Positions 1,375 to 38,308 of a stretch of 64,000 nt of DNA are shown here, piece by piece. The position numbers and the translations under genes were made by a program. The notes under the pieces are model-generated. The model was given only the letters and a program-made list of their open reading frames with translations, searched no databases and was not told the DNA's origin. The stretch's first letter is position 1. Every line of letters begins with the position of its first letter. This DNA is from Bacteroidia bacterium (GTDB lineage Bacteria > Bacteroidota > Bacteroidia > Bacteroidales > CAJPTX01): NCBI GenBank assembly GCA_905373475.1, contig CAJPTC010000013.1, positions 2,060-66,059 of the forward strand. Reading direction: 5' to 3'.

Positions 1375-4300
1375 ATGAGACGAGGTTTACTTTTGTTATG
1401 CTTCTTGAGCATTGGCTTGCTGCTCCATGCCCAAGAACCGATTCGTTTCGGAGATCGTGAGGTCTACCTAGAGGCGAATGTACACGCCAAGGTACGTGGA
1501 CACAAAACGTCTAGTTTGGAGTTGGGTGTTCCTACTGGCGAAAAGCTCAACGTGCTGGTTCAGTTTGGAGCTGAGGAAATCGCTTACGATGCGTTGAAGC
1601 AAAAAGGCGTAGAACTGGGCGATTACCTTGGAAGCAATGCCTACTATGCTCAAGTATCCCCAGGTAGCCGTCCGAGTGACTTTGTGGGTACAGGGCTTCG
1701 TACAGTAGTACCCATTCGTGGTGAGTGGAAGATGACTAGTAGTCTACTTCATGGAGCGCCCCCAGACTGGGCTTCGGCAGGCAATAAACTGAAAGTAACT
1801 CTTTCGTGGTTCAAAAGTGTAAGTGCTGACCGTATAAAAGCAGATCTAAGTAAGTGCGGCGTGGAGGTCGGAGCGATTTCAGAAATACTGCGCAATGTAG
1901 ATATCGTGGCAACACGCGAACAAATTCTTGCATTGGCAGAACTCGAGTATGTCTCATTGGTGCGATGGATAGAACCTCCTCTTGAGTTAGAGAATAGAGA
2001 AGGCGCGCGTTTAAGTGCAGCTGCCTCTTTGCGCATTCCGATAGCGCTTGGCGGACGCGGTCTCACGGGTAAGGACGTACGTGTTGGCATTTGGGATGCC
2101 AATGTGGGCGATCATGTAGATTATGGCGTGCGTGTACACCGCCAAGAATTTGAGATGGGAGGAAGCACGCATGGTATGCATACCACGGGTACAATTTTAG
2201 GAAGTGGACTGGTAAACGAGCGTGGACGTGGTATGGCTCCAGAGGCTGAGATCTGGACGAACAATTTCAATACGCAGTCCAATAAGAAGAAGGTGGCGCA
2301 AGAGATGTTAGAGACGTATCAGAAAGAACATATTACGCTAACCTCAAACTCTTATGGTTATCGCCTTATCGGGCTTTGTAATTTCGACGCATACCAGAAT
2401 TATACATTCCTAGGGAATACGGATATTGATAAGCTTGCCGCCCTGTACCCTGAGCTGACGCATGTCTATTCGGCAGGTAATTCTCAGGGAGAATGTGGTC
2501 GCTCTTTTTCGCATGCGACAAACTATGCTAAAAATATAATCTCGGTTGCGGCTCTCAATGCCTTGGGAGGTATGACCGAATTCTCGAGTTTCGGACCACT
2601 CTTTGACGGTCGTATGTTCCCCATAATAAGTGCGCGGGGCGAAAAAGTATTTTCTACTGTAGCAGGACAAGGGTATGCATTAAATAGTGGAACGTCTATG
2701 TCTTGCCCAACGGTGACAGGTCATTTGGCATTATTAACACAGCGCTGGATGCAGCTTCATGGCGGAGCGGCTCCCTACAATTATTTTTTGAAGGCGCTAA
2801 TAGCGAATACCGCACGCGATGCAGGAAACCCAGGCCCAGACTACAAGTTCGGCTTTGGAATTTTGGATGCAGAGGCGGCAGTAACGACCATGGAGAATGG
2901 TTGGTACAAACTTTCTGAGATGAAAATAGGAGAGACAGAGCAAGTCGCGACATTTAAGATTCCTGCGGGAGTAAAAGAGCTTCGTGTTATGCTGTGTTGG
3001 AACGACCCTGTCGCTGATAAGGACTATGCAAAAGGCGAGTGCCCACTTGTGAATGACCTAGACTTAAGTGTCAGTTTTGGTGCGCAAGCCTATTTACCGT
3101 TTACGTTGGATCCGTCTAATCCTGATGCAGATGCTGTGAATACAAAACCCAATAGGGTTGATAACATCGAACAAGTTGTGGTGAAAAATCCCGCAGCAGG
3201 CGATGTTGTTGTCAAGGTGTCGGGGGCTGTGAAGCAAGGCGAAAAACAGTCGTATGCGCTTGTATGGTACTGCGATTATAAAACGCCAGAGATATTCTCT
3301 CCGCTCCCGGGCGATACCTATTCGCCCAAAGAAGAGATTTATCTCCGTGCGGAGAACGTGTCGCCTAAAGTGCGCGTAGATCTCTCATCTGATGGCGGAA
3401 AATCATTTGTAACGTTAGGTACATTCGACAGATGCGCGGCTGTGCAACTCCCAGATAATATAGCTCCGACCGATAAAGCTGTGCTTCGTTTGACAGACGA
3501 GAATGGGGTAAGCATCTCTACTAAGGGCTATTTCACAATTCTGTCGCAAGTACACGGCGTTAAGCTGGAGGCTATGAGCTGCTCTACGTCTGGTTGGAAA
3601 CTTACTTGGCGTGAAGCTAAGGGCGCAACCCAATATGAGATCTTGCGCGCTGATATTAACAATGCCACGTACAAGAAGATCGGAGAATCTACGACTACCG
3701 AGTTCTTAATTCCAAAAGAATATGTGACCAATGAGCGCAACATCTATTCCGTGCAAGCTATTGCTGGTGAGATGCGTGCGCGCAGAAGTGTAGCAGTTGT
3801 ATCGGACAAAGTAATGCCAACACTTCTCACAGAAGCCGACTTGCCTTTTGTTGAGACTTTTATAGGTTTTCCTTTAACGCATACGGAGGTCGAGACAGGT
3901 GAGAATTTGGCACTTACTATGCAAGATGCTATTGTCGAGTTGCAACTTCCTTTTATGTCGCACCATGTTGTATGGCAAGCAAAAAATGAGGCGACTGACT
4001 GGCAGCACCCCTTCCAACAAAGAGACAATGTTGGTACACTCAAAGTATGTTCGCTCGATCTCTCAAAAGTGGCTAAAGGGACTCCCTTGCAGTTTTCTAC
4101 TTTTATGCTCATGCAGAAAACAAAGGATAACCCTAAAAATGGTTCTTTACTCCGATTGTTGGTAAACGGTGAGGAAGTGGAAGATGTCCTCGGACGTAAA
4201 CAAATCGTGGGCGATGGGAGTGAACATAATCTTGCTTGGGATTTAACAAGGTTTGCAGGACAAAAAATCTCTTTAACCCTTGAAACGGCATTGCAAAAGG

Positions 4301-7300
4301 ATGGGAATAATGCCATAATTGTTTATTACCAAATTTTTAAAAAAACGACTCAACCCGATGTGCAGATTGCGTGGGTAAATAATCCTGAAGTTGAGGCGAA
4401 GGCACAGATGCAGGAAGAAATCATCAATTTCAAGATTGTAAATAGTTCTTCGCTTGAGCTAAACGATGTACCTGTTTCGATTCAGGTAGATGGTAAGGTC
4501 GTTTATGCGAAGAATATAAAGCAGTTAAAACCATTTGAGGATCAGATTATTGAGTATTTGTACAATTTCGCGAGCGATATACCCCATAAATTTCGAGTTG
4601 ATGTACGTGCCGATCTACAAGATGACATAACACCTGAAGATAACACAGCACATTTTGAAGTCTATAACTTGGGGAATGTTATTGCAATGCCCGAGGTCTC
4701 TTACATAGACTTCTTGGGTGTACCGCTCCCTATAGTACCTCGCATAACCAAGACGCTAACAGGGGCAATTCCATTCACCGATGGTCGTGGTACACTTGCG
4801 CCTTACAATACTAATGAGAAGGCAATTCTAAAGGTTTTGCCTAGCGATCCGTCGCATGCTGTGCAAGTAACCTTTAGCGATATTAAGCTTGCGGCAAATG
4901 ATACTTTGTACGTCATAGCGGGCGATGTAGATAAGGAGTTGCGAGTGAATAGGAAGATGGCTACGAGTTTCCTCACTGGACAGATGGCGGCTCGCTCGTT
5001 CGTCTCCGAAGCGCGCGATGGTGGTATTACGTTTATGATGTTTGGGCATGACGATAATCCTGGCGAGGGGTGGATTGGCGAATTTAGTGAACTCTCAATG
5101 CCCGATTTATGGAAAATGAACTCTTTGCGCGAAGTTGCGGGCGCTGATCCTAATCATGTTAAATTAGAAGCGAAAGTCGAGAATTTGACGACTGTCTCGC
5201 TTCCTCACGTGGGTCTCTGGATAACAGCAAACGCTAAAACACGTCGAATAGAAATTCCTGAACTAAAGGCAAAGACGGAAACAACGTTTGTTATTCCTGA
5301 AGAGATAGATAAAACTGCTCCCGTGTACATAGAAATTGCAGCTGAATTGGCAAAAGATGGAGATCCGTCGAACAATAGGCGCAACCTTGTAATTGCCAAT
5401 GACCCGATTTGGAATGGAGGAGGTACGATTACGAATCCGAAGGCACTCTATCTCTCCGAGGTGCGTCTGGCAGGTGAAGGCGATACGATACAATTCCCCG
5501 CGAATACTCGCATCACCTATATGCCTCAAAAGAAGCTTAAGCTCTATAAGAGTAAAAATGCCCTACAACTAGTACTTTCTAAAGCTCCGACTGCTGCCCA
5601 AGCAGGGGCAAAACTCCGTGTGTGGGTAGATCTGGACGCTAACAATGACTTGGGTACAACTGTGCCTGAATTAGTTACAGCTGCGTTGGAAGAAGGTACA
5701 AAAGAATATTGGGTAGAACTTGATTATACAACTCTTGCCTCACTTACTGCAGGCGAACGTAGATTCCGTTTCATGCTTGCGGATGACGAAAACTACAATA
5801 AGTTCATTAGTGGTAAAGCTATGGCATGGGGAAGTGTAGCAGACGTTACCGCAGACATTAAGGGAGAGCCCAGCCCGAACGATTACGAAGTTGCCTTACT
5901 CTCGGTCGAAGGGGTGAAGAGTGGACGTGCTCTCTCCCATGCGACCGAACTAAAGGTAAAGTTGAAAAATAATGGTCTTGCACAGCTGTCGCAAGTAAAA
6001 TTGTCTTACCAAATAAATAAAAATACACCTGTGACAGAGACGCTTACTACATCTATCGCACCTCGTACCGAGGGGATTGTAACATTCAATACAAAGGCAG
6101 ACTTGAGTGCGATTGGTAAGCACAAGATTACGGTGAAGCTCGAGGAAAAAGATCTTAATGAGAAGGACAACGAGGTTGCGAAAATTGTTTATAAGATAGC
6201 ACCCAAGAATACCGACAAACTTTTCGCATTGAACTTTGAAGGATCTTCCGAAGAGGGCATGCTCTTCCCAAAAGTTGACAAACAAATTGTAAACACTGCT
6301 ACGATCGAGGGGTGGTGGAAACTCGACGGAACACAGTTTGCGCAATATATTAGCGGCGAAGGAATCTTTTTAGTGGCAGTTGCGGGGTATGCACAAATCC
6401 CTGACAATACATTAGCACTCGTGGCAGGGCGATATTCTCAATTCACAAGTACAAAGCCAGTTGTGAAACCTGGACAGTGGCAACACATTGCCGTTACACT
6501 CAATCAAAAGAAGGCTTCACCAAACGACTGGAGTTTTACGACTACCATAGAGGTTTACGTGGACGGCGAAAAGATCGAAATGAAGCGCGAGGGACGTGAC
6601 GGTTTCTTCTTCAAGAATTTTGCACTGAATCATCCGATAAAAGGACAAAATGCGATGTTCCGAATTTGGAACGTAATCCGCACAGAGGATGAAATTAAGG
6701 CAAACATGAGTAAGACTGTACGTACGGGGGCAGATTTGGTTCTACCCTCGGGATGTGTAGGCGAGTATATCTATACGGAGGGACAAGGGAAAGCATCTGA
6801 ATACGGTGATGATGGTGTGTTTACAGCAATAGTGTCTGAGCGCGAAAACGTATGGCAGCCTATTAAAAATACAATTGCGAATATCGAAGTTGAGGGACAA
6901 CTAATCCCCGTTGCCTACAGCTCGGCAGAAGCACAGGTTACTATGCCACAAGACTTTGCCGATTTTGCAAATGTGAAAGTGAAGTTTACGCCAGATTGGC
7001 CAGGTACGAAGATCCAATTCAATGGTTCGGATATTACAGAGGGACAGGTCTTTGATTTCAGTAATGCTGATCACAAACTCACATTCAAGGCAACAAAGTC
7101 AGATCTTTTTGGCTTAACGCTGCAACAGGAGGTTACGGTGAAGCTCGTAAATGACCTATCCAATGCTTGCGATATAGTAAAGCTCTCTGTGCTAAAAAAC
7201 CAAAATAGTGGATTGAAAAAGGATCTTGTCATTCCAAAACCAGAGGAAACGGTTAATCTGGAAGCACAAGATGAATCGGCTACAAGTAAGCTCGATATAA

Positions 7301-10300
7301 CAAATGTGACATTAGTAGTGAACGAGATCTCGCCCAATGCAAAACTTTACAAGGACGATAAGGAGATTGCAGTGGGTAGCGATATAAAGCTCGATCTGAG
7401 TACGTCACAGACGTTGCGAGTAGAAGCACAGAACAAGCGTGATGTGAAGTATTACACCATACGTATGTCAATGTTGCAAGAGCTCACTTGGAGCAGTGAG
7501 AAGATTACGCGACCATTTACTTCTGAGGTATTGCCACTGGATGCCACGGCCTCTTCGGGGTTGAAAGTAAAGTATGTGAGCGAAAACCCATCAGTGGCTA
7601 CTATAGATGCTCATGGTAATTTGTACACCACAGCTGTTGGTACTACCAAGATATTTGCTGTACAGGAAGGCAATATGCAGTATAAAGCAGCAGACAAGCG
7701 TGAGCGTGAAGTAGAAGTGACGCGTGTGCCTCTAACAGTAAAGATGTTACCTACCACGATGGCGGAAGGCGACACATTACCCAATTTCAAGTTTGAGTAT
7801 GACGGTTTGCAGTTTGCAGGTACAGAATACCAGTTTGATACCGAGTATGTGGTGAAAATGGCAGATGGCAATGTTTGGAATCCGACAATGCCGCCGCTAG
7901 CTATAGGCGAGTATACAGTGGTCGCTAAAGGTTATACTGAGCCGTATGAGTTCAACAATTATACAGTAACACGTACAGAGGGGAAACTAACGGTTACAAA
8001 TGCTGAAAAGGCGCGTCGTGTAACACTTACAGTGAAAGATGAACAAGGAGCTGCGCTTAAGGACGTAACGGTGCAGTGTGGGCAGATTACGCAGACAACA
8101 CAAGACGACGGACGCGTTCAGTTCCTCCTATTACCAGGCAAGTATACTGTTATGGCACAGCACGAAGGTTATACAACGGGACAAGAGACCTTTATAGTGA
8201 AAGGACGCTCATTGCAGTTCGATTTACAGCTCCGCAAACTAGTGTATACATTATCTTACAAGGCGGATGCTAACGGTATGATTCAAGGCGCTAAAACACA
8301 AAAGGTGGTTGCTGGAGGCGAAGGCAAACAAGTGGTTGCTGTTCCGCAGAATCTTAAGTATAAGTTCAAACAATGGTCGGATGGAAGCACGCTTGCAGCA
8401 CGCACTGATAAAGATGTAACTAATAATGTAGATGTTACGGCTACCTTTGAACCAGTGCTTTACAAGCTGACTTACGTCATTGGAAAAGGCGGGATAAAGG
8501 TTTCGGGCGACCTTGAGCAGGTTATACAACCTGGTGAAAATGGAACTCCTGTCGAAGTAAAGGCTGCAGAAGGGTACATATTTATGGGTTGGTCGGATGG
8601 GCTGATGTCGGCTACACGAACAGACATGAATATTACCCAAGATATAAAGCTAGAAGCACGCTTCTTCAAAGCGTACCTGATTACGTGGGGCGAAGACTTC
8701 GAGAGTGGCGAAGAGTGTCTCAGCGCTTGGAGCTTTCCCACGCCTAATGAAGGTTTTGGTTGGACATACTCTGAACGTCTTGACATTAGAGAAAATACGG
8801 GAGCGGAAACGGGGCATGCGCTTTTAATCGACTCGGATCGCGATTGGGCGTGGAATGAAGAAACTTCGGCAATTTCGCCGTGGATGACTCTTGCAGGACG
8901 TGTGGCAGGCTCAAAGGTTGTGGTCTCTTTTGCTCGGAATTACATACAGGCTGAAACTACAGATGAGGCTAAAGCGCAGTACTGTTTTGAAGATGGAGAA
9001 TGGCATGATGGCATCGAATTAACACCAGCAGATGACGGCTCATTGATGTCGTTTGAGATAGACGATGCGACACTTGCAACTCATAAGTTCTTACGTCTGA
9101 GATGGTATCTCACGAACCCCGAATCGATGGATGCGCTTGTAGCCATAGATGATATCAAGGTGAAATACTCGCCAGATCCTACTGATGTCGTATTACGATA
9201 CATTGCAGGCGAACACGGTAAACTCCAAAAAGAGGGGAGTGCTGAGCCAGAAAAGGTGCTAGAGTTCACGACAACGGCAGGCACTTTAGGTACAAAAGTG
9301 ACAGCTATGCCTGATGCGGGTTACGTCTTTGACAAATGGTCCGATGATAAAACGACAGAGAATAATCGTCAAGATGATGCTGAGGTTTTGGTATATGCTT
9401 CCTTTAAGCCAGCTCCCAAGACGCTGTATACTGTTTCCTACAGTGCAAGAGCCAATGGTGAGCTACGTGGGTTGTTATATCAACGTGTAGCTGTAGGCGA
9501 GAAGAGCACACCTGTTGTGGCAGTTGCCAATGAAGGTTATCAGTTTGCACAATGGTCTGATGGTTCAAAACAAAATCCGAGAACTGATATAGTAAATGAG
9601 GATGGCAAACTCTATGAGGCGGAATTTTCGGTGAAGCCACCTGTTTATACGCTAACCTACGTGGCAGGCGAACATGGCGAAGTTACGGGCAATCTGTTAC
9701 AAACTGTAGAGGCTGGTAACAATGGTACTGAGGTAATCGCTATTGCCGACGACGGTTACCACTTTGTGAAGTGGGACGATGGTATTACAACTGCCAGACG
9801 TACTGAAACCAATGTACAAGCCAGCAAGGTGTATGCTGCACAGTTTGAAGCCGATGTGAAGACATTCGCCGTAACACTTAAGCATGACGGTGAAGGAGAG
9901 CTGAAGATAACAGGCATAGAAGAAAGTAAACTGAATGCCGTTCCTGAAGGCACTGAACTCACGGCAGTGGCAACGCCTGCAAAGGGTTGGAAGTTGAAGA
10001 GTCTTACGGCGGGTACACAGGACATCTCGGCAGACGGTAAGTTCACGGTAACTGCCAATGTTGAGGTGAAGGCAGTATTTGAAAAAGAAGGTGCTCCGCA
10101 GCCCACAACATTCGCCGTAACACTTAAGCATGACGGTGAAGGAGAGCTGAAGATAACAGGTATTGAAGAAAGTAAACTGAATGCCGTTCCCGAAGGCACC
10201 GAGCTCACAGCAGTAGCAACGCCTGCAAAGGGTTGGAAGTTGAAGAGCCTTACGGCGGGTACACAGGACATCTTGTCAGACGGTAAGTTTACCGTAAACG

Positions 10301-10593: not shown

Positions 10594-10596
10594 TGA

Positions 10597-20529: not shown

Positions 20530-20532
20530 TTT

Positions 20533-20726: not shown

Positions 20727-20932
20727 TGTAGAGACGAGGCATGCTTTGTGCAGTTTCCTCGTGCAATTTATTCGTAGAAACGCAAACGAAAATATATAAT
20801 ACTCTGATTGATAATAATATTTTTCGTTTCATATACATGTTTTCTTAGAAATACGAATACCGAAAGATTTTACTCTTCTTTTGACAAAAGGCGCTAACTT
20901 AGTTAGCAATTAACTAATTGTATAGAGAACAG
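20727..20932 (+). promoter_or_regulatory. Conserved upstream/leader region of giant subtilase gene copy 3
   Basis: Near-identical to 11309-11529 (see that feature) and shares its blocks with 1181-1374. Confidence 0.5.
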
Positions 20933-23900
20933 ATGAGACGATCTTTACTTTTGTTACTCTTTTTGAGCATTGGTTTATTGCTTTATGCACAAGAGCCAGT
21001 TCGTTTTGGAGACCATGAGGTTTACCTAGAGGCGAATGTACACGCCAAGGTACGTGGACACAAAACGTCTAGTTTGGAGTTGGGTATTCCTACTGGCGAA
21101 AAACTCAACGTGCTAGTTCAGTTTGGAACTGAGAAAATCTCTTACGAGGCGTTGAAGCAAAAAGGTGTAAAATTGGGCGATTACCTTGGAAGCAATGCCT
21201 ACTATGCTCAAGTAGATCCAGGTAGCCGTCCGAGCGATTTTGTGGGTACTGGGCTTCGTACAGTAGTACCCATTCGTGGTGAGTGGAAAGTGGTGAACAG
21301 CTTACTCCAGAATACTGCTCCAGATTGGGCAGTAGACGGTGCCCGATTAAAGATGACGCTTTCATGGTTCTCTGGTGTATCGTGGGTAAAGGTAAAGTCG
21401 TTGTTGGAGAAAAAGCAGATTGCCTATCATGCAGCATCTGAGCCTCTACAAACCGTGGAGATTGAGGGGACACGCGATGCCATTCTGGCTCTTGCCAGTG
21501 AGGAGTGCGTATCGTTTATTACTTGGACTGCCCCTCCACAAGAAATAACGAATTATCATGGAGCACGCCTAAGTGGTGCGTCTGTATTAAGTCTTCCTCC
21601 TTTGCAAAATGGGCGCGGACTCACAGGGAAAGGGATTCGGATAGGTATTTGGGATGGTAACGTTGGCGATCACGTCGATTATGGTTCTAGGGTACATCGT
21701 TGTGAATTTGAACAATCGATAACTGGAACAGGTGCTCATGGTATGCATACGACGGGGACAATTGTTGGGAGTGGTCTTCTCGACCCACGGACACAAGGCA
21801 TGGCTCCTGAGGCGCAGATTTGGACCTATAATTTCACGGTAGTGTCTAATGGGAAGCCTATACCTCAAAAAATGTATGAGGCATATATGGCAGAGGATAT
21901 TTCGCTTACTTCCAATTCTTATGGTTTGAAGATCAAGAACATTTGTGGGCGCGACGAGCTTTTCAATTATACCTTGATGGGGAATTCGAATGTTGATTAC
22001 CTCTCGTGTAACATTCCTACTTTAACACATGTCTATGCCGCTGGGAATGATCAATACGCCTGCCAACGTCCATTCTCTCATTCGGGGAATTATTCCAAAA
22101 ACATAATTTCAGTTGGAGCACTTGATGCATTCGGTACGATAACAGATTTCTCTAGTTTTGGTCCGCTACTCGATGGTCGTATTTACCCTATCGTAAGCGC
22201 GTACGGTTATGCCGTTCTTTCCACAGTAGATGGGCAGCGATATGAACGGATGAATGGTACCTCTATGGCTTGTCCTACTGTAACGGGTCATCTGGCGTTA
22301 CTCACGCAACGTTGGAAACAATTGCATGGTGGGGCATTGCCCACGAACTATTTTTTGAAGGCGCTGATAGCTAATACGGCGGACGATGCAGGCAACTTAG
22401 GACCAGACTATAAGTATGGCTTTGGTATTCTGAATGCAGAGGCTGCTGTTACCGTAATAGAAGGCAGAACGTACGAATTAGCACAACTAACAACCGATAC
22501 GCAAAAACGAGACTTGACACTTCAAGTGCCGAATGGGGTACAGGAATTGCGCGTGATGCTGTGTTGGAACGACCCCGTTGCGCGAAAAGAATATCTCACA
22601 GGCGAGAGTCCATTAGTAAATGATCTCAACCTTTCTGTAACTTCTGGTGGTACAACACATCTACCTCTAACTTTAGATTTTAAGCACCCCAGTGCATTAG
22701 CGCAAGAAGCGGTGAATAAGGTAGATAATATTGAGCAGGTAGTAATAAAAAATCCAGCGCAGGGAGAATATATTCTTACAGTGAACGGTGTGTTGAAACA
22801 GGGTGACAAACAACCCTACGCACTCGTTTGGTATTTTGACTATCAGCAGCCGACTATTGTTTCTCCTGCTATGGGTGATATTTTTGCAGCGGGCGATACT
22901 GTTTATCTCCGTACGAGGAATATGCAGTCACCTCTTAGCGTCTCTTTTTCTACTGATGATGGAACAACATTTACAGCACTTGGTAGCTACGATGCAAACG
23001 CTGCTGTAGTACTTCCTAAGTCACTTGCTCCGACCAATAGTGCAATTCTCCGTGCAACAGATGCAAACAACCAAACGCTGGAGGTGGCACAATTGACTAT
23101 TATGGGGCAAGTTAAAGGCGTGAAGTTGACAACGTCGCCTTGTAGTAGTGATGGGTGGAAGTTAGCGTGGGAAGAGGTCGCCGATGCGGCGCATTATGAA
23201 ATCCTAAAGGGAGATATCGAGAAAGGAAGTTACGAGAAAGTTGCCGAAGTAGCTGCCCCAGCATTGGAGTATGTAATATCCAGTAGCGATGTAGTTCTCG
23301 GGCGCAATGTTTATGCCGTTCGCGCCGTAAGTAGTACGGGGATTAAAGGACAGCGGAGCGTAGGCGTATTATCGCAGGCAGCAATGCCTCTAATGTTGAG
23401 TGAACAGCAACTCCCATTTTTCGATTCGTTTGTGGGTACACCTTTCCGTTATGTGACAACTGAGGCTGGTAAAAAAATAAAATTTAGGAAAGAGGAAGCC
23501 TTAGAAAATTATGCACTTCCGTTTGATTCTCATATGCTGGTGTGGCAACCTTCACGCCCAGCAAGCGCTTGGGAGAATCCGTTTGTAACGCAACGCGACA
23601 ATGTCGGTGCTGTAAGCATGTGTGAAATAGATCTTTCGGCAATTTCCGCAGGAACAGCGTTGAAGTTTGTAGCCAACTACTATATGGCTAAGAGTGCAAA
23701 GCCAAAAGGGTCGTTGTTACGCTTATTAGTTGATAATGAGGAGGTCGCCGATGAATTAGGACGCACACAAATCGCAGGCGATTCTGATGAGCATTTTGCC
23801 GCTTGGGACTTCTCAGAGTATGCTGGGAAAAAGATAAGGGTTAAGCTAGAATTTGCACTTGCGACTCCGCAAGATGGTATAGTCCTAATTTCTTATCAGC

Positions 23901-26900
23901 TCATGACTAAAACCCAACAGTCTGATGTCGGAATTGTTTGGGCAAATGTGCCAGAGATTAGCGCGAAAGCCTACATGGAGAACGAAGATATTCGTTTCAA
24001 GGTGCAGAATTTCTCTTCCGTGGAAGCCCAAAATATCCCTGTCTCTGTGCAGGTAGACGGTGAAGTGGTATACTCCTACCTAATTGAGACGCTGAAGCCT
24101 TTTGAGGATAGGATCTTCTCCTATAAGCACAATTTTGCGAGTAGGGAGGCGCGTAAGTATGTTGTAGATATACGTACATCTGTAAAAGATGACGCTAAAC
24201 CTCAGAATAACGAGGCGACTTTTGGTGTCTATAATATGGGAGAGGTGCTTACGATGCCAGAAGTAACCTATGTGGAATTTATGGGGTCGTTATTTCCCCA
24301 GATCCCCTATGAGACGCACCGTTTTTCTGGTCATCGGAAATTTGTGGATGGAAGAGGAGAATTAGGCTCGTATAATCCCGGTGAGTTTGCGGTGCTTAAG
24401 CTCCTACCTACTGCTCCCAATAGTGTGTTGCAAGCTACATTCTTGAAGCAAGAGCTTGCAGTAAGTGATACGTTGTTTGTCTTTACAGGCAATGTTCCAA
24501 GCAATTTGCAAGACATCAGTACGAAGGATGCATCTTACATTCTTACGGGGAGATCCTCTGACCCCAGCACCTTTATCTCGGAGGCAACTGACGGAGCGCT
24601 TACATTTATTCTGATCGGCTATAACAAGATTCCTGGGGAAGGGTGGATTGCTAATCTGAGCGAACTACCAATGCCTAATCAGTGGCAATTACTCAAGATA
24701 AAAGAGGTAGCAGGTTCAGATGCTGTGCATAGTAAGCTAGAACTTACGGTAAATAATTTGCTTCCCGTTCCTTTCTATAATGTAGGCGTTTATCTTTCAG
24801 TAGATGGTGTAACAAAACGTTTGACGATCCCTCAATTGCCTGCTGGCGAATCAGTAGTAGTTCTCGACGAAGAGTTGAGTATTGCACCTCCGATGCGCTC
24901 GGAAGTGCTAGTAACACTTGCTAGCGATGGTGATGTAAGCGACAATAGTCAAAAATGCCTCATACAACATGACCCTATTGGGAAACTGGGGGGGAAGATT
25001 ACCTCGCCGAATGCACTTTATATAGCCGAGGTTGCAGTAGTAGGAGAGAAGGATACTATTCGTCTTTTGCCGTCGGAGTATATTACCTATAAGCCCGAAT
25101 GCAAAATTCCTCTTTATACGAAGAGTGAGAATGCTCTAAGAGTTCGTTTATCGGGTAAACCAACGCAAGAGCAGAGTGTTGCTAAGCTTCGGATCTGGAC
25201 AAATCTTGACGGTAACAACGAACTGAAGGATGAAGCCCCTGAACTTATCGTAGTCCCCTTGCAAAAGGACAAGAGCGGCTATGAGGCTGTGATAAATTTG
25301 TCTGCTGTTACCTCAATAGCCTTGGGAGAACAACGAATGCGTGTAATGCTGGCAACAGATGAAGGATATGCCCTGTTCAAAGAAGGGAAGGAAATGGAAT
25401 GGGGAAGTGTTGTCGATTTTACTGCTTTAATCCGCGAAGGTGTCAGTCCGAATGATTATGAACTTGCCCTATTGCGCTTTCAATCACCCAAAACCGCTCA
25501 TACATTAGGGGTTGCCGAGCCAATATCGCTAAAGGTGCGCAACAATGGTTTGGCAAAACTCACTAGCATAGCGCTCTCATGTATGGTCGATAATTTGACG
25601 TTTGACGAGACGGTGAATTGTGATATTGCTCCGCGCGGTGGTGTGGGGACTGTTACGTTGTCGCATGGGGCAGATTTGAGTCTTGAAGGGAAACACACCA
25701 TCCAGATTGCTCTGAAAAATAAGGATGTTAACCAGGCTGATAACAGCTTAAAGCTTACTGTATTTAATATTCCCGCACGGACTGAAGATTTGTATTCGCT
25801 CTCTTTTGTAGGCGATAAGGAGGAATATGTGAGTTTCCCACGTGTTGCACAGAATATAGAGAATGAGGCAACGGTAGAAGGTTGGTGGTATCTTAATAAG
25901 CCACAGATGAGTGGTCTCGTTTATGGCGGAGAAAACGGAATACAAGTGCTTTCTTTGGCGGGGCATAAAGATTATCCCGACAATTCGTTGGTTGTTTTGA
26001 TCGGTCCCAATGGCGGTTATGTGAGTAAACAACCTGTAATAAAGCCCGAACAGTGGCAGCATATCGCAGTGACGCTAGTTCAAGACGAAGATATGTTTAC
26101 AGGCAATATGCTGACTACTGCGGAAGTATTTATTGATGGGCAAAAAATACAATTAAAACGCTTACGTTATGATGGCTTTAAGCTAGAACACCTCTGGGCA
26201 AATGTGCGTCTTCAAGGGCAAAATGCAATGTTCCGTTTATGGAATACAGTGCGTACGCCTGCCGAGATAAAAGACAATATGTGCAAGAGCGTTCGTATTG
26301 CTGATGGTACATTGCCTACAGGTTGTGAGGCAGAGTTCCTTTATACAGAGGGACGTAGTCAAGCATCGGCATCGGGAGATGAACACTTTGCAATGATTCG
26401 TAGTGAACGCACCGATGTTTGGAAAAAGCTAGAGCGGGTAGTTAGAAGCGTGGAGGTTGCTCAACAAGTGCGTCCGACGGAGCATGAGGGCAGCGCTATG
26501 ACCATAACTTTACCGCAAGACTTTGTTGGCTTTGACAAAGTAAAGTTGCAATTCTTGTCAGATTGGGCAGACGCTGAAATAACCTATAGCAGTGCTGTTA
26601 TAACTTCGGATACGGAGATAGATTTCTCGCAAAATTCCGAGCACAAGTTAGCCTTTAAGGCTGTTAAGAGTGATTTATTTGGCAAGACTCTGACGCAAGA
26701 TTTCACGGTTCAATTAAAGAATGATCTGTCCAACGCTTGTGATATAGAAGAGCTGGCGCTTCTAAAACTTAAAAATAGCGGCTTGAAGGAAGATCTTACC
26801 GTAAATAATCCGAGTACTCTAATTGTTTTGGATACTGGTGATGAAGTACTCTCAGATGAATTTGACGCAAGTCATGTGTGTTTAACGATAAAACGGCTCT

Positions 26901-29900
26901 CGGCAGGGGCGAGGCTGTATTACGGAGCAGATGAAATTGTAATGAGTGCTAGCGGTGCAGAAGTATCGCTTGATCTGACTTCGCCACGTAAATTGCGAGT
27001 TGTGGCACAAAATGGTTACGATGCCAAAACCTATACCGTACGTCTTGCTATGGCGCAGACAATAACTTGGTCGGAAGAAAAAATCGTGCATCCATTCGCT
27101 AGTGTTTCACTTGCTCTTGATGCGACAACTTCGTCGGCATTAGTGGTAAGATACAATAGCCTAGACCCGTCTGTTGCTACCGTGGACGCTGCAGGGAATT
27201 TGATAGCGGCGGGTGTCGGAAAAACGAAACTTTTGGCCTACCAAGAAGGAAACGGACAATACAAACCTGCGCCTATAAAAGAGCGAGAGGTAGAAATAAC
27301 ACGTGCTGATCTCACCATTAAGGTGAAAGATGTTACGATGGCGCAAGGTGATATGTTGCCTCCACTCGAATTTGAATATGAGGGGCTACAGTTTGAAGGA
27401 ACAGAACGCGAGTTTACATGGCCGTATGAAATACAAACCTCTGACGGGCAAGTCTGCAGTACAGACCAACAGTTAGTGCCAGGAGTATACCGCATAGTTC
27501 CGAAGGAATATTCGGGGGCATACGAATCGGGGAATTATAGGGTGACACGTGAGAATGGTAAACTAACAGTTCTTGAGGCTCAGCGTGCTAAGGCTATCAC
27601 TTTCGTAGCGAAAGATCAGAACGATGCACCTTTGGCGGGGGTTGTTGTACAGTGTGATGTATACACATATATAACACAAGCAGATGGGAGAGTTACGCTC
27701 TATTTATTACCCAAACAAAAGAGCTATCGTGTATTGGCAAGTAAACTTGGGTATGTATCTGCCGAGCAATCGTTTGTCGTTTCGGAGGCTGCAGAAGTGA
27801 CTTTGAAATTGTTACAACGCGTTTATAAGCTTACCTATCAGACCGATGTCTTTGGTATAATCTCGGGTAGTTCTGAACAAATGATTGCAGCACAGCACGA
27901 TGGCGAGCAAGTAGTGGCAGTACCGCGAGATAGACAACATCGTTTCAAACAATGGTCGGATGGGGTGACAACTGCCGCACGTACCGATAAGAACGTTACA
28001 GCCGATATAAGTGCAACTGCGGAGTTTGAACCATATTTTTATACGCTTACTTATTCTGTTTCGGAAGGTGGCGAGTTTGTGTCGGCGGAGGATACCCAAG
28101 TGCAAAAGATAGTACCTGGTGCGGACGGACAGGTAGTGACCGTTAAGGCTAAGGCGGGCTATGTCTTCCTCGGCTGGGAGGATGGAGAACGAAATCTGTC
28201 GCGTACAGATCGAGCTGTTTGGGAAGACAAATCGGTAAAAGCTATATTTTTCAAGCCCTATCGTTTATCGTGGACGGAGAATTTTGATAACGATGCGTTT
28301 ACACTACAAGGCTGGGAATATGGTTCGTCTAAATACGGTCGTGGATGGCAAATCTTCCCTGAAAAGACAATCACCAATAAACCTGATGCTGCGGGTAAAG
28401 TTCTTGCCATTGCTCCACGGTTTGAGCCAGCACCTAAACCTATATATGCCGATTGTTGGGTTGCATCGCCGTGGTTAGCACTGGAAGGGGGAAGTGCGGC
28501 TTCCAAAATTCAGTTGACATATACACATCGGATGCTCGTGATTGGACTCACTACGGCGCATGTAGAGTATTGCTTCGAAGATGGTACATGGGTAAAGGCT
28601 CACGATATTCCCGCAGGTGTAGAGGCGCAGGTAGCTACTCTCGAATTGGAGGCTTCGACTTTAGCCACGCATAAATATGTACGTATACGTTGGGTGTTTA
28701 CTACTCCGAGTTCGTTTACCTACCTTGCTATAGATAATATAAAAGTGACTTTTATTCCCGAAGTAGTGCAGCAGACTTTGCGTTATTTTGCTGAGGAGAA
28801 TGGTTTGTTGCAAAAACAAGGCGAGAATGAGAAGGTGGCGTATCTCGAGCTTCAGACCCCTAAAGATATTCCTGCCACAAAGGTGGTAGCAGTACCTAAT
28901 GAGGGCTTTAGCTTCGATCGGTGGTCAGATGGTCTTGAAAGTGCGGAACGCCAGGATGCGCGGGATGTAACGGTGGTTGCCATGTTCCGTGTTAAGCCCA
29001 AGCCGACGTATACAATTACGTATCTGTTAGGCGAGCATGGGGCAGCATTGCTAGGAAGTCCGTATCAGTCGCGTACGGAGGGAGACTATACAGCGCCTGT
29101 TACAGCAGTTGCTCAAACGGGTTTCAGGTTCTTACAGTGGAATGACGGTGTAAAAGTCAATCCGAGAACTGATAAAGTGACTGCTGAGAATAAGACCTAT
29201 ACAGCACAGTTTATGCAAGTCTTTACATTAACCTACGTTGCAGGCGATGGTGGTACAATTGTAGGTACTACTCCGCAAACGGTCGATGCTGGTGGTAGCG
29301 GTACAGAGGTAGAAGCGAAAGCCAATGCAGGTTACCACTTCGTTAAGTGGAACGATGGTATTACAACCGCCAAACGTACCGAAACCAATGTACAAGCCAG
29401 CAAGACGTATACGGCGCAGTTTGAAGCCGATGTGAAGACATTCGCCGTAAAACTCGCTCATGAGGGTGAAGGTACATTAGTTATAACAGGCTATGATGCC
29501 GAGAAGCTTAAGACCGTTCCCGAAGGCACCGAACTCACAGCAGTGGCAACGCCTGCAAAGGGTTGGAAGTTGAAGAGCCTTACGGCGGGTACACAGGACA
29601 TCTCGTCAGACGGCAAGTTCACGGTAACCGCCAATGTTGAGGTGAAGGCAGTATTTGAAGAAGAAGGTAGTGGTCCGCAACCTAAGACGTTCGCTGTAAC
29701 GCTTGCGAAAGAAGGCGAAGGCAAGCTGAAGATAACGGGCATAGAAGAAAGTAAACTGAATGCCGTTCCCGAAGGCACCGAGCTCACGGCAGTGGCAACG
29801 CCTGCAAAGGGTTGGAAGTTGAAGCGCCTTACAGCAGGTACACAGGACATCTCGTCAGACGGTAAGTTCACGGTAACCGCGGATGTTGAGGTAAAGGCAG

Positions 29901-30172
29901 TGTTTGTGAAGAGTACTTCTGTTGACGATGCTGTATTGGCCAATGTGCTTGTAGCGCCTAATCCGTTCGATAATCAATTACGAATTGTAAACGGCGATTT
30001 ACGAGGGGAATATGCGTTATTGAATGCACAAGGTGTTGTAGTACGTAGTGGCAGTATGGCTGGTAACGAGGTACTGATTGAAACTAGCGATCTTATTTCA
30101 GGTCTCTACCTCTTGCGTCTCACTTCCGAAAATGGTGCAACGAGGACAATAACAGTCGTAAAAGAAAGATAA
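20933..30172 (+). CDS. Giant (~3,079 aa) multidomain subtilase-family (S8) surface protein with T9SS C-terminal sorting domain, paralog 3
   Basis: The track starts at TTG 20918; the ATG at 20933 gives MRRSLLLLLFLSIGLLLYA|QEP. The S8 motifs are intact: GIWDGNVGDHVDYG, AHGMHTTGTIVGSG, LTSNSYG and GTSMACPTVTGHLALL. Domain order matches copies 1 and 2 (LamG-like WQHIAVT..VFIDGQ..FRLWN, Big_2/MBG, InlB-type repeats, MAM-like, 2 x 83-aa module, CTD VAPNPF..GLYLLRL..RTITVVKER). Confidence 0.9.
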   Translation: MRRSLLLLLFLSIGLLLYAQEPVRFGDHEVYLEANVHAKVRGHKTSSLELGIPTGEKLNVLVQFGTEKISYEALKQKGVKLGDYLGSNAYYAQVDPGSRPSDFVGTGLRTVVPIRGEWKVVNSLLQNTAPDWAVDGARLKMTLSWFSGVSWVKVKSLLEKKQIAYHAASEPLQTVEIEGTRDAILALASEECVSFITWTAPPQEITNYHGARLSGASVLSLPPLQNGRGLTGKGIRIGIWDGNVGDHVDYGSRVHRCEFEQSITGTGAHGMHTTGTIVGSGLLDPRTQGMAPEAQIWTYNFTVVSNGKPIPQKMYEAYMAEDISLTSNSYGLKIKNICGRDELFNYTLMGNSNVDYLSCNIPTLTHVYAAGNDQYACQRPFSHSGNYSKNIISVGALDAFGTITDFSSFGPLLDGRIYPIVSAYGYAVLSTVDGQRYERMNGTSMACPTVTGHLALLTQRWKQLHGGALPTNYFLKALIANTADDAGNLGPDYKYGFGILNAEAAVTVIEGRTYELAQLTTDTQKRDLTLQVPNGVQELRVMLCWNDPVARKEYLTGESPLVNDLNLSVTSGGTTHLPLTLDFKHPSALAQEAVNKVDNIEQVVIKNPAQGEYILTVNGVLKQGDKQPYALVWYFDYQQPTIVSPAMGDIFAAGDTVYLRTRNMQSPLSVSFSTDDGTTFTALGSYDANAAVVLPKSLAPTNSAILRATDANNQTLEVAQLTIMGQVKGVKLTTSPCSSDGWKLAWEEVADAAHYEILKGDIEKGSYEKVAEVAAPALEYVISSSDVVLGRNVYAVRAVSSTGIKGQRSVGVLSQAAMPLMLSEQQLPFFDSFVGTPFRYVTTEAGKKIKFRKEEALENYALPFDSHMLVWQPSRPASAWENPFVTQRDNVGAVSMCEIDLSAISAGTALKFVANYYMAKSAKPKGSLLRLLVDNEEVADELGRTQIAGDSDEHFAAWDFSEYAGKKIRVKLEFALATPQDGIVLISYQLMTKTQQSDVGIVWANVPEISAKAYMENEDIRFKVQNFSSVEAQNIPVSVQVDGEVVYSYLIETLKPFEDRIFSYKHNFASREARKYVVDIRTSVKDDAKPQNNEATFGVYNMGEVLTMPEVTYVEFMGSLFPQIPYETHRFSGHRKFVDGRGELGSYNPGEFAVLKLLPTAPNSVLQATFLKQELAVSDTLFVFTGNVPSNLQDISTKDASYILTGRSSDPSTFISEATDGALTFILIGYNKIPGEGWIANLSELPMPNQWQLLKIKEVAGSDAVHSKLELTVNNLLPVPFYNVGVYLSVDGVTKRLTIPQLPAGESVVVLDEELSIAPPMRSEVLVTLASDGDVSDNSQKCLIQHDPIGKLGGKITSPNALYIAEVAVVGEKDTIRLLPSEYITYKPECKIPLYTKSENALRVRLSGKPTQEQSVAKLRIWTNLDGNNELKDEAPELIVVPLQKDKSGYEAVINLSAVTSIALGEQRMRVMLATDEGYALFKEGKEMEWGSVVDFTALIREGVSPNDYELALLRFQSPKTAHTLGVAEPISLKVRNNGLAKLTSIALSCMVDNLTFDETVNCDIAPRGGVGTVTLSHGADLSLEGKHTIQIALKNKDVNQADNSLKLTVFNIPARTEDLYSLSFVGDKEEYVSFPRVAQNIENEATVEGWWYLNKPQMSGLVYGGENGIQVLSLAGHKDYPDNSLVVLIGPNGGYVSKQPVIKPEQWQHIAVTLVQDEDMFTGNMLTTAEVFIDGQKIQLKRLRYDGFKLEHLWANVRLQGQNAMFRLWNTVRTPAEIKDNMCKSVRIADGTLPTGCEAEFLYTEGRSQASASGDEHFAMIRSERTDVWKKLERVVRSVEVAQQVRPTEHEGSAMTITLPQDFVGFDKVKLQFLSDWADAEITYSSAVITSDTEIDFSQNSEHKLAFKAVKSDLFGKTLTQDFTVQLKNDLSNACDIEELALLKLKNSGLKEDLTVNNPSTLIVLDTGDEVLSDEFDASHVCLTIKRLSAGARLYYGADEIVMSASGAEVSLDLTSPRKLRVVAQNGYDAKTYTVRLAMAQTITWSEEKIVHPFASVSLALDATTSSALVVRYNSLDPSVATVDAAGNLIAAGVGKTKLLAYQEGNGQYKPAPIKEREVEITRADLTIKVKDVTMAQGDMLPPLEFEYEGLQFEGTEREFTWPYEIQTSDGQVCSTDQQLVPGVYRIVPKEYSGAYESGNYRVTRENGKLTVLEAQRAKAITFVAKDQNDAPLAGVVVQCDVYTYITQADGRVTLYLLPKQKSYRVLASKLGYVSAEQSFVVSEAAEVTLKLLQRVYKLTYQTDVFGIISGSSEQMIAAQHDGEQVVAVPRDRQHRFKQWSDGVTTAARTDKNVTADISATAEFEPYFYTLTYSVSEGGEFVSAEDTQVQKIVPGADGQVVTVKAKAGYVFLGWEDGERNLSRTDRAVWEDKSVKAIFFKPYRLSWTENFDNDAFTLQGWEYGSSKYGRGWQIFPEKTITNKPDAAGKVLAIAPRFEPAPKPIYADCWVASPWLALEGGSAASKIQLTYTHRMLVIGLTTAHVEYCFEDGTWVKAHDIPAGVEAQVATLELEASTLATHKYVRIRWVFTTPSSFTYLAIDNIKVTFIPEVVQQTLRYFAEENGLLQKQGENEKVAYLELQTPKDIPATKVVAVPNEGFSFDRWSDGLESAERQDARDVTVVAMFRVKPKPTYTITYLLGEHGAALLGSPYQSRTEGDYTAPVTAVAQTGFRFLQWNDGVKVNPRTDKVTAENKTYTAQFMQVFTLTYVAGDGGTIVGTTPQTVDAGGSGTEVEAKANAGYHFVKWNDGITTAKRTETNVQASKTYTAQFEADVKTFAVKLAHEGEGTLVITGYDAEKLKTVPEGTELTAVATPAKGWKLKSLTAGTQDISSDGKFTVTANVEVKAVFEEEGSGPQPKTFAVTLAKEGEGKLKITGIEESKLNAVPEGTELTAVATPAKGWKLKRLTAGTQDISSDGKFTVTADVEVKAVFVKSTSVDDAVLANVLVAPNPFDNQLRIVNGDLRGEYALLNAQGVVVRSGSMAGNEVLIETSDLISGLYLLRLTSENGATRTITVVKER
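29441..29911 (+). repeat. In-frame tandem duplication (2 x 249 bp) inside giant gene 3
   Basis: Copy starts lie at 29441 and 29690: FAVKLAHEGEGTLVITGYDAEKLKTVPEGTELTAVATPAKGWKLKSL.. and FAVTLAKEGEGKLKITGIEESKLNAVPEGTELTAVATPAKGWKLKRL... Confidence 0.9.
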
Positions 30173-30184
30173 TGAGATTTGTAG

Positions 30185-30227
30185 GGGGGAGGCGCGCCTC
30201 CCCCGTAAAATGCGCACCGCGCATTTT
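30185..30227 (+). terminator. Double GC-rich hairpin immediately after the giant gene 3 stop (possible terminator)
   Basis: A perfect 10-bp-arm palindrome at 30185-30204 is followed by a 9-bp stem AAAATGCGC/GCGCATTTT at 30207-30227. The U-tract is part of the second stem, so terminator function is uncertain. Confidence 0.4.
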
Positions 30228-30285
30228 CAGACAGCATTGCGATTGTAGCGTCGTGTTATGACGCGACGCCAGTAATTTAGTACAA

Positions 30286-30656: not shown

Positions 30657-30692
30657 TCATACTATTTTACTAATCTTATTAAGGTAGGTTGC

Positions 30693-38292: not shown

Positions 38293-38308
38293 ATACTATT
38301 CCATGACA

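Follow-up and report, generated by a model that had tools for sequence, protein, structure and literature searches.

The stretch examined here, a 64-kb piece of contig CAJPTC010000013.1 from the Bacteroidia bacterium assembly GCA_905373475.1 (referred to throughout as the window), carries on its + strand three giant genes, which we call A, B, and C. Each is predicted to encode a surface protease of ~3000 amino acids (aa) that combines an S8 subtilase head, a long train of further domains, and a C-terminal domain (CTD) for sorting through a type IX secretion system (T9SS). Residue numbers for the head and the stalk refer to gene A, and the genes lie as follows.

1375 to 10593, + strand: gene A, 3072 aa, 338 kDa; S8 subtilase, domain train, and T9SS CTD, assigned from the open reading frame (ORF), Pfam, and NCBIfam
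11530 to 20529, + strand: gene B, 2999 aa, 332 kDa; paralog with one InlB-type repeat fewer than A and C
20933 to 30172, + strand: gene C, 3079 aa, 338 kDa; paralog

The three genes stand head to tail as ORFs with no internal stops or frameshifts. The mechanically called ORFs of B and C open at a TTG 15 nt earlier (11515 and 20918), and the ATGs at 11530 and 20933 yield the conserved start MRR(S/G)LLLL, which continues to AQEP. The original prediction, which had been made from the letters of the window, described three uninterrupted ORFs at these coordinates encoding proteins of ~330 kDa, and this was confirmed (338, 332, and 338 kDa). Its statement that none of the copies is decaying also stands, with stop-free ORFs and intact catalytic residues in all three. 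Overall protein identity among A, B, and C is 51–52%.

Tandem 9-kb repeats are prone to mis-assembly, and the metagenome-assembled genomes (MAGs) of related organisms are fragmented exactly at giant genes, with many contigs of ~9 kb. Both observations could favor an assembly artifact, in which repeats were collapsed or expanded, or a set of pseudogene duplicates. However, the copies are ~51% identical as proteins and 45–65% identical as DNA in their middle parts, with a difference of about 45% between the copies as DNA, and neither their stop-free ORFs nor their catalytic residues suggest pseudogenes. The gene order of 3072, 2998, and 3079 aa was found again in an independent assembly (L084), with three further similar places returned by the same look-up. 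In a close relative (L002), a 3072-aa gene likewise sits behind a 790-aa gene, after which the locus ends, and the exact A, B, and C proteins fall in public clusters of 58, 99, and 136 near-identical members. Mis-assembly was set aside on the grounds of this divergence, the repeated gene order, the placement of A, and the populated clusters; we give the artifact next to no probability and, as judged from these sequence comparisons, the triplication is real. The count of three copies is correct for the window, and their order recurs in L084, yet the array is larger than first described, with two more giants upstream in the relative and 6–10 loci in sister genomes.

The head of each protein was resolved into the following parts, given for gene A.

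1375 to 1434, + strand: signal peptide (MRRGLLLLCFLSIGLLLHA, followed by Q), from the sequence and an AlphaFold2 helix at aa 2–18
1435 to 2004, + strand: prodomain-like region, aa 21–210, from AlphaFold2 and Foldseek matches to the pro-subtilases 3afg, 2e1p, and 3whi
2017 to 2889, + strand: S8 catalytic domain, PF00082 at 106 bits and alignments
2095 to 2097, 2170 to 2172, 2479 to 2481, and 2695 to 2697, + strand: catalytic codons of D241, H266, N369, and S441
2902 to 3279, + strand: KP-43-type beta jelly roll (the 'P-domain-like' unit), aa 510–635, from phmmer and Foldseek

The Peptidase_S8 profile (PF00082, cut-off 21.8 bits) matched A, B, and C at 106.1, 113.8, and 117.8 bits. In all three genes, D241 lies in IWDAN, H266 in HGMHTTGT, N369 in AGN, and S441 in GTSMxCP, and none of the 117 aligned relatives departs from this Asp/His/Asn/Ser set. 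No other part of the proteins is as well conserved across the family as the catalytic head. We modeled aa 1–640 with AlphaFold2 from 25 aligned relatives (predicted local distance difference test, pLDDT, 84), and the model reads, from N to C terminus, as a signal helix, two prodomain-like units, a linker, a subtilisin fold, and a beta jelly roll. Its top Foldseek matches, over 475–479 aligned columns, were 1wmd (KP-43; E 9e-28, target template modeling (TM) score 0.77) and 5fax (SubHal), with Pro-Tk-SP and other pro-subtilisins ranking next and target TM scores for subtilisins of 0.75–0.81. A phmmer search aligned aa 264–616 with residues 66–417 of the KP-43 protease 1wmd, contiguously through the catalytic domain. 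KP-43 and SubHal ranked first in this search too, and in both searches the matched region takes in the jelly roll as well as the catalytic domain; C5a peptidase chains were also present among the phmmer matches of the head to the PDB. On sequence and model together, we identify the head as a KP-43-type S8 subtilase, in which the catalytic domain is directly followed by a jelly roll. A complete S8 catalytic set in each gene had been predicted, and the scores of 106–118 bits, the canonical motifs, and the modeled fold all bear this out; the predicted P-domain-like unit proved to be the KP-43-type jelly roll.

The N-terminus common to A, B, and C, MRR(G/S)LLLL(C/L)FLSIGLLL(H/Y)A followed by Q, has the charged head, hydrophobic core, and A-Q site of a Sec signal peptide as judged by inspection, and the residues of the predicted cleavage site, A19 and Q20, show conservation of 90% or more in the family. 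Behind it, the AlphaFold2 model contains two beta-alpha-beta-beta-(alpha)-beta units, at aa 58–113 and 138–198, that resemble subtilase prodomains, and then a disordered, low-pLDDT linker at aa 203–208. A Pfam scan of the prodomain-like region of A returned no matches.

Beyond the head, the domains below were assigned in gene A, with counterparts where stated.

3289 to 6195, + strand: family-specific train of ~8 beta-sandwich domains, aa 639–1607 (CARDB-like, CUB-like, and GEVED-like units), from AlphaFold2 and weak Pfam matches
6268 to 6699, + strand: Laminin_G_3 (concanavalin-like lectin fold), aa 1632–1775, Pfam
6712 to 8244, + strand: Cadherin-like (weak), Big_2, MBG_2, and CarboxypepD_reg, aa 1780–2290, Pfam
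8245 to 9864, + strand: InlB-type B repeats (Flg_new_2/Flg_new) around a choice-of-anchor-J-like jelly roll, Pfam
8668 to 9174, + strand: the choice-of-anchor-J-like jelly roll itself, aa 2432–2600, NF038128
9865 to 10098 and 10111 to 10344, + strand: two tandem 82-aa modules, 90% identical as protein and 88% as DNA, called Flg_new_2 by Pfam; counterparts at 19798 to 20280 (B) and 29441 to 29923 (C), + strand
10372 to 10590, + strand: type A T9SS CTD, PF18962 and TIGR04183; counterparts formed by the final ~72 aa in B and in C

The jelly roll and the CTD are separated by about 2400 aa and ~25 domains, whose order is fixed across orders of Bacteroidota, and ~80% of the protein consists of non-catalytic beta-sandwich, lectin-like, and InlB-repeat domains. 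Most of the domain types named by the original prediction were recovered with hidden Markov models (HMMs): CARDB, Laminin_G_3, Big_2, MBG_2, and CarboxypepD_reg were all found, several of them near the cut-off and absent from some copies, and Flg_new_2 occurs 5–6 times per protein, in keeping with the predicted InlB-type units. The duplicated 82–83-aa module was likewise verified, its two units being 78–90% identical to each other within each protein. An FN3-like domain received no HMM match in A, B, or C, and what the AlphaFold2 model of aa 615–1640 offers in that part (pLDDT 86, all beta) is the run of ~8 sandwich domains at aa 639–1607. When a specific fold was sought for aa 615–1640, Foldseek returned generic multi-Ig chains alone (alpha-2-macroglobulin, complement, and thick-filament proteins; TM 0.1). 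For the unit described as MAM/choice-of-anchor-J-like, the second name held and the MAM label did not: NF038128 matched 8 of 13 family members, with a best E of 2e-8, and the family profile matches reelin repeats. Folds of the LamG, choice-of-anchor J, CUB-like, and cadherin-like kinds typically serve in binding, and such a role is predicted for them here.

In the family alignment of 117 sequences, occupancy exceeds 0.9 for aa 1–2750, and the number of B repeats alone varies, around aa 2750–2950. Because of this occupancy, the architecture is regarded as fixed and collinear, and the description of the proteins as mosaics was not upheld for the whole ~2750-aa train.

At the C-terminus, the CTDs of B and C score above the cut-offs of PF18962 (27 bits) and TIGR04183 (23 bits), at 32.5 and 31.9 bits for B and 27.8 and 29.1 bits for C. 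The CTD of A is collinear with these two at 71–77% identity and clearly homologous. All end in TITVVKER or TITVVKDR. Three further CTD-bearing proteins are encoded within the window. In type A cargo, the CTD is cleaved and glycan or lipopolysaccharide (LPS) is attached (PMC11969387, PMC8545088).

The ends and the centers of the three genes were found to have different histories. The homogenized tracts at the ends are as follows.

1178 to 1735, + strand: 5' homogenized tract of A, ~200 bp upstream and the first ~120 codons, from direct repeats D2, D9, and D10 and synonymous differences
11309 to 11890 (B) and 20727 to 21293 (C), + strand: counterparts of the 5' tract
9907 to 10626, + strand: 3' homogenized tract of A, the last ~230 codons and ~33 bp past the stop, from direct repeats D1 and D3
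19840 to 20562 (B) and 29483 to 30205 (C), + strand: counterparts of the 3' tract

Protein identity among A, B, and C is 76–88% over the first 100 aa and ~90% over the last ~200 aa. Synonymous differences are saturated, at 0.75–0.9, through the entire middle, including the catalytic core, where nonsynonymous differences are low, and they drop to 0.19–0.35 in the first ~120 codons (most strongly between A and C, 0.19–0.28) and to 0.2–0.35 in the last ~230 codons for all pairs. The likeness extends into ~210 bp of upstream DNA and ~33 bp past the stop codon. Strongly diverged central parts and homogenized ends, which had been proposed by eye, can therefore be expressed in numbers (synonymous differences of 0.75–0.9 vs 0.2–0.35). 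With synonymous sites saturated, the ratio of nonsynonymous to synonymous substitution rates (dN/dS) between paralogs was unusable as a measure of selection, and ortholog pairs were taken instead.

Orthologs and paralogs rank in opposite order in the middle and at the ends. Over aa 121–620 and 700–1400, respectively, ortholog identity is 90 and 87% for B and L018, 93 and 91% for P0018 and L012, 80 and 73% for A and L010b, and 75 and 64% for C and L009, compared with 36–62% between paralogs of one genome over the same two intervals. Two orthologs of B, in L018 and L014, are both 87–90% identical to it in the middle. Over the first 120 aa, orthologs are 74–83% identical, paralogs of the window's species 78–91%, and a tandem pair in CAUTNK01 93%. 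Over the last 230 aa, orthologs reach 50–66%, the A, B, and C paralogs 80–87%, the CAUTNK01 tandem pair 91%, and a dispersed CAUTNK01 pair (L011 and L033) 97%. Both ends are thus more alike between paralogs of the same genome than between orthologs, and the middle shows the opposite; orthologs likewise show less synonymous divergence (dS) in the middle than at the ends. Ortholog dN/dS is 0.03–0.25 over nearly the full length and never exceeds 0.5.

The same pattern was observed among strains, whose variable sites concentrate at the ends. Counted per 100 aa, A begins with 13 and 13 such sites, drops to 0–3 through most of its middle, and finishes with 12, 27, and 29. We considered variable sites at which a paralog differs from the reference: at the ends, the variant is the residue found in the paralog in 46/58, 32/46, and 35/50 cases (70–79%), while in the middle this is so in 10/30, 33/106, and 42/153 (28–33%). 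Because paralogs resemble each other more than orthologs do at the ends, and because strain variants there copy paralog residues, the data indicate ongoing gene conversion between paralogs that is confined to the two ends. The converted parts are the promoter, signal peptide, and first pro-unit on one side and the last two modules and the CTD on the other. Sequence comparison further shows A, B, and C to be ancient collinear paralogs with 1:1 orthologs under purifying selection, and since ortholog dN/dS is low along the length, the non-catalytic train is functionally constrained rather than diversifying. The homogenized ends comprise the portions that interact with machinery common to all copies, namely the promoter, Sec signal, first pro-unit, membrane-proximal modules, and CTD. 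One possible reason for the pattern is that conversion would be tolerated or favored there and selected against in functionally distinct centers. A separate observation concerns P0002, a protein 82% identical to A overall, which is 99–100% identical over aa 2500–2800 only (about 8872 to 9774 in the window) and 70–90% elsewhere. This points to a recent block of recombination between diverged alleles in the choice-of-anchor-J/B-repeat region.

Each giant gene also appears to have its own transcription signals. An alignment of the upstream regions revealed a ~210-bp 5' region with conserved blocks common to A, B, and C, and each gene is followed by a terminator-like hairpin.

10708 to 10732, + strand: terminator-like GC-rich hairpin and T run after A
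20598 to 20620 and 30284 to 30323, + strand: the same after B and after C

Because each gene has its own conserved 5' region and terminator-like hairpin, A, B, and C are probably separate, co-regulated transcription units.

To delimit the family, we used a word-seeded search, which returned at least 195 clusters at 90% identity. Most of these are 2900–3800 aa long and span 90–100% of A, at identities down to 27%; where a database name is present, it is 'S8 family serine peptidase' only. The Pfam-poor segment aa 641–1420 was additionally scanned with HMMER, exhaustively, against 1.84 billion representative proteins. There were 117 matches at E <= 1e-10, of which the full-span ones always lie at ~640–1440 of proteins of ~2300–3800 aa, and the others are repeated generic domains. 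With full-span matches confined to the same position in such proteins, the family is considered rare and well delimited, and it amounts to ~100 clusters at 50% identity among these representatives. The searched literature contained no papers on a giant S8 family beyond the KP-43/T9SS paper and general T9SS work, and papers outside this search are possible. As far as our searches could show, the family is present in public databases yet undescribed, with no characterized member. The statement that this is not a characterized family accordingly holds for the whole protein and not for the head, which is no orphan given that the KP-43 subfamily has characterized T9SS cargo (PMC11982257).

Taxonomic spread was evaluated by a scan of one genome per species, among which the window's own species was not represented and the best match was 75% identical; the organism is known from metagenomes only. 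Among uncultured 'Bacteroidia' MAGs, CAJPTS01 has 10 loci, CAUTNK01 8, CAUVMY01 7 fragments, and CBDEMG01 6. Six loci, several with two tandem genes, were found in 'Candidatus Bacteroides periocalifornicus' (LIIK01), a periodontitis-associated oral organism (PMC4691655, PMC6275135). Carriers include human oral MAGs and rumen MAGs, as well as, in culture, Balneicella halophila and numerous species of Flavobacterium. In that genus the proteins measure ~2300 aa, and their first ~1800 aa are in register (LamG at aa 1636–1794 vs 1632–1775 in A). The more distant homologs are single-copy and lie amid unrelated genes. The suggested check of orthologs and copy number thus yielded 1:1 orthologs across species and 6–10 loci in sister MAGs. 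Many of the contigs at loci L005–L016 (CAJPTS01) and L015–L059 (CAUVMY01) are 3–9 kb long and hold little beyond one giant gene or fragment. Since the MAGs of this clade break at giant genes, short-read assemblies probably break at the homogenized ends, and copy number in MAGs is probably underestimated.

The closest characterized relative of the head is the KP-43 subfamily, including SpBcA, SpBcB, and SpBcC of Bergeyella cardium. These three are T9SS cargo. Members with a CTD and choice-of-anchor J are active and self-activating, and the characterized T9SS peptidases of this type degrade external proteins such as fibrinogen, LL-37, and gelatin; in SpBcA, the propeptide sits in the active site until the protease cuts it off itself (PMC11982257). 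Like the giants, members of the subfamily (SpBcA–C, Bacillus KP-43, SubHal) have an S8 domain followed directly by a jelly roll; they also have an N-terminal propeptide region of inhibitory type, to which the prodomain-like region of the giants would correspond. SpBcA–C further share with the giants a T9SS CTD and the presence of several paralogs, as well as choice-of-anchor J in SpBcB and SpBcC, yet in the published diagram their CTD is preceded by one to three accessory domains of the PKD, cleaved-adhesin, or choice-of-anchor-J type, whereas the giants have ~25 domains (PMC11982257). The giants also differ from the subfamily in their two prodomain-like units, their tandem arrays, and the concerted evolution of their ends.

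The closest functional analog, by analogy of architecture, is the group of Gram-positive cell-envelope proteinases, although the giants are not members of that family. These proteinases (lactocepin PrtP, the C5a peptidases ScpA/ScpB, and SpyCEP) have an N-terminal S8 domain, an Fn3/Ig-like stalk, and a sortase-type C-terminal anchor. As in the giants, where the anchor is predicted, an S8 head on a stalk with a covalent C-terminal anchor holds the protease off the cell. The anchors differ, being a T9SS CTD in the giants (PorU, LPS) and LPXTG to peptidoglycan in the proteinases; the giants are without LPXTG. Their stalk is two to three times longer and made of other domains, and their hosts are Gram-negative Bacteroidota. 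No match to a PA domain was found in the catalytic domain of the giants in fragment scans at E up to 1, and the alignment to KP-43 is contiguous.

As an evolutionary parallel, the KLIKK proteases of Tannerella forsythia come closest, with the gingipain/HagA genes second. The KLIKK proteases are clustered, T9SS-sorted secreted proteases in which paralog C-termini are nearly identical and the rest differs, and the cluster is missing from a health-associated relative (PMC4404884). They are, however, small, of serine and metallo types, and end in KLIKK; the giants end in VVKER or VVKDR, have a single 3000-aa architecture, and are homogenized at the 5' end too. RgpA, Kgp, and HagA of Porphyromonas gingivalis are type A T9SS proteins, anchored to A-LPS, with near-identical adhesin and C-terminal segments shared through recombination. 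Like the giants, the gingipains fuse a protease to adhesin-type domains. P. gingivalis is an oral anaerobe, and its virulence depends in large part on the gingipains. Unlike the giants, they are C25 cysteine proteases of ~1700 aa with cleaved-adhesin (HA) domains, and sequence kinship exists in the CTD only.

The genes that flank the array within the window are listed next.

1 to 541, − strand: 5' end of a gene for 790 aa, without Pfam matches, that runs off the edge of the window
30654 to 33899, + strand: SusC-like gene; best PDB match P. gingivalis RagA (E 3e-93), slightly ahead of glycan SusC homologs
33927 to 35606, + strand: SusD-like gene matching glycan-type SusD structures
35638 to 38292, + strand: cysteine peptidase of the streptopain type (C10), bearing a T9SS CTD and, at its N-terminus, an I69 inhibitor domain

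Upstream, the close relative L002 (331-kb contig; 97% DNA identity over the upstream region) carries a further pair of giant S8 genes (3239 and 3214 aa) beyond the 790-aa gene. A PD-(D/E)XK/AAA-ATPase-like gene lies between those two giants and a DDE transposase beside the 790-aa gene (L002 1 to 9616 and 20090 to 21442). Downstream of C, the SusD-like protein had no RagB match in the PDB comparison, and the interval 35638 to 44308 holds more T9SS cargo, namely a 1107-aa DUF285 protein whose C-terminus resembles that of the giants and a 773-aa CTD protein without any other Pfam match. A prolyl oligopeptidase is encoded 18 kb beyond the C10 peptidase, and the genes further downstream are housekeeping genes (ProRS, RecF-like, ADP-forming acetyl-CoA synthetase-like). 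A plasmid or mobile origin was considered and rejected: tblastn against plasmids gave distant generic S8 matches only, and the downstream genes are housekeeping.

Taken together, we consider it reasonably probable, on sequence, structural models, and analogy, that the giants are surface-anchored proteases on long stalks, functionally akin to Gram-positive cell-envelope proteinases. A Sec signal peptide would bring the protein to the periplasm, and the type A CTD would route it through the T9SS, where, if it is handled like other type A cargo, the PorU sortase would remove the CTD and join the new C-terminus to surface lipopolysaccharide. Once rid of the two-unit prodomain, the KP-43-type S8 domain, together with its jelly roll, would become active. 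An anchor at the C-terminus would place the protease at the distal tip of the ~25-domain stalk, which could reach on the order of 100 nm if extended. Extracellular proteins would be cleaved at or away from the cell surface, and the paralog-specific stalk and head would make for differing preferences in binding or substrate. What we infer in this scheme comprises secretion, anchoring, activation, extended geometry, substrates, and a role in nutrition or virulence.

Several results weigh against it. The CTD of A falls marginally under the cut-offs, at 20.8–24 bits for PF18962 and 21.7 for TIGR04183, so that the predicted T9SS CTD is borne out above the cut-offs in B and C and slightly below them in A. 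The window contains no gene of the T9SS machinery (Sov/SprA, PorK–N, PorU, PorV), and the T9SS competence of the organism is read solely from its several CTD proteins. Removal of the prodomain, and the site at which it would occur, are suggested by the low-confidence linker alone, and the AlphaFold2 models say neither that the stalk is extended nor that it is folded back. Among the 83 related loci searched with tblastn, SusC adjoins a giant gene in only 4 (L018, L037, L032, and L075), and SusC/SusD are therefore no conserved partner; such a partnership, which also had no RagB match in its favor, was dropped as a candidate explanation and kept merely as a weak rival.

That rival reading is a peptide-harvesting locus, in which the giants and the C10 peptidase would make oligopeptides for import by a SusC/SusD-type, RagAB-like transporter. 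It draws on the SusC/SusD pair directly after C, the CTD-bearing C10 peptidase that follows and the prolyl oligopeptidase further on, the rank of RagA as the best solved-structure match of the SusC-like protein, and the four loci with adjacent SusC, to which can be added C10 peptidases near giants in L018 and L056 of the same 83. However, the adjacency is as rare as stated, distant single-copy homologs sit amid unrelated genes, the SusD-like protein matches glycan-type SusD rather than RagB, and the margin of RagA over glycan SusC proteins is small. The terminator-like hairpin of each giant gene argues further against an operon with SusC. We regard peptide harvesting as doubtful, and it would refine rather than exclude the explanation by stalked surface proteases. 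A structural adhesin or fibril, whose S8 head serves only the maturation of itself or of other cargo, appears improbable to us. Some subtilisin-like proteases do act in maturation, and the large non-catalytic share of the protein, kept under purifying selection and including typical binding modules, would suit a fibril; yet conservation peaks in the head, where the catalytic set never varies, and the characterized KP-43-type T9SS peptidases degrade external proteins (PMC11982257). Adhesion and proteolysis may both be roles of these proteins.

The original prediction had offered a family of protease-adhesins or, alternatively, an antigenic-variation reservoir. The first half is in line with the intact S8 proteases, the non-catalytic train, and the type A tail. 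In the second, the homogenized ends would act as recombination handles that swap central cassettes, by antigenic or phase variation. The ends are indeed under ongoing gene conversion, the P0002 block implies some recombination between diverged alleles, and a transposase lies within the array of a relative. Nevertheless, the centers are inherited as stable 1:1 orthologs across species, up to 90–94% identical, with ortholog dN/dS of 0.03–0.25 and no window above 0.5, and the middle of A is nearly invariant within the species, with the 0–3 variable sites per 100 aa given above. All copies are full-length and catalytically intact, each with its own 5' region and terminator, and there are no silent or partial donor cassettes in the window. 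The window yielded neither an invertible segment nor a recombinase gene, and in assemblies L001 and L002 the upstream region runs in the same order, with no inversion. A reservoir of this kind was not borne out and is very unlikely.

A surface protease with binding domains is the most economical reading. Beyond it, we would tentatively propose that ~335-kDa protease-tipped surface fibrils form an unrecognized T9SS class for virulence or foraging, with 6–10 or more loci per genome (perhaps several per cent of what the genome encodes) in an uncultured oral Bacteroidia clade to which 'Candidatus Bacteroides periocalifornicus' belongs, paralog-specific targets, ends kept interchangeable and matched to the machinery by conversion, and a gingipain-like role in this clade.

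T9SS proteases are the chief virulence and feeding tools of oral Bacteroidota and are known almost solely from cultured species. A large multi-domain T9SS protease as such is of little surprise; what stands out is the rigid 3000-aa architecture, the oral expansion, and the end-restricted concerted evolution. The family is now defined as proteins of ~3000 aa with more than 25 domains in fixed order and an invariant catalytic set, rare overall and multiplied in uncultured, periodontitis-linked oral lineages. The giants are candidates for the degradation of host or microbial proteins by uncultured oral organisms, with aa 21–640 as the head. They also provide a clean case of region-restricted concerted evolution, which is relevant to the co-evolution of secretion signals and the machinery that handles them. 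For metagenomics, the breakage of MAGs of this clade at giant genes means low copy counts.

The spacers between the genes hold several kinds of short repeats, and no known RNA elements or tRNAs were found in them. A palindrome, GCTAAC-TTA-GTTAGC, lies ~35 nt before the ATG of B (11484 to 11500) and C (20892 to 20908) and, in imperfect form, at about 1345 to 1360 before A; it could be an operator or a hairpin of the 5' untranslated region (UTR). An element of ~60 nt with two hairpins (GCCCAACGTTTYACATTGGGC, then CCACCGCCATACGGCGGGG) occurs in five copies, all on the + strand and confined to the spacers just 3' of the giants.

10643 to 10702, 10782 to 10841, and 11053 to 11112, + strand: two-hairpin element after A
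20624 to 20683, + strand: two-hairpin element after B
30326 to 30349, + strand: two-hairpin element after C, first hairpin only

No copies of this element would be expected by chance, and it had no Rfam match. It may be a repeat resembling repetitive extragenic palindromes (REP) or miniature inverted-repeat transposable elements (MITE), or a 3'-UTR element, and its copies account for the longer A–B spacer (936 vs 403 bp). GC-rich palindromes of the GCGTCGTGCCATGGCACGACGC type are scattered in the spacers at 30486 to 30507, with related arms at 1007 to 1032/1100 to 1125, 20689 to 20704, and 30248 to 30269, and are too short and too closely spaced to bracket an invertible promoter. An invertible promoter, and with it phase variation, was rejected as a candidate on finding that the four spacers hold inverted repeats of a short, palindromic hairpin type. 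The sole long inverted pair, at 699 to 728 and 1275 to 1304, is AT-rich and 73% complementary. Finally, ORFs of 150–242 aa run on the minus strand inside the giants (3744 to 4316, 9756 to 10415, 19590 to 20318, and 29491 to 29943), three of them in the 3' homogenized tracts; these antisense ORFs are most likely artifacts of repeated, compositionally biased sequence.

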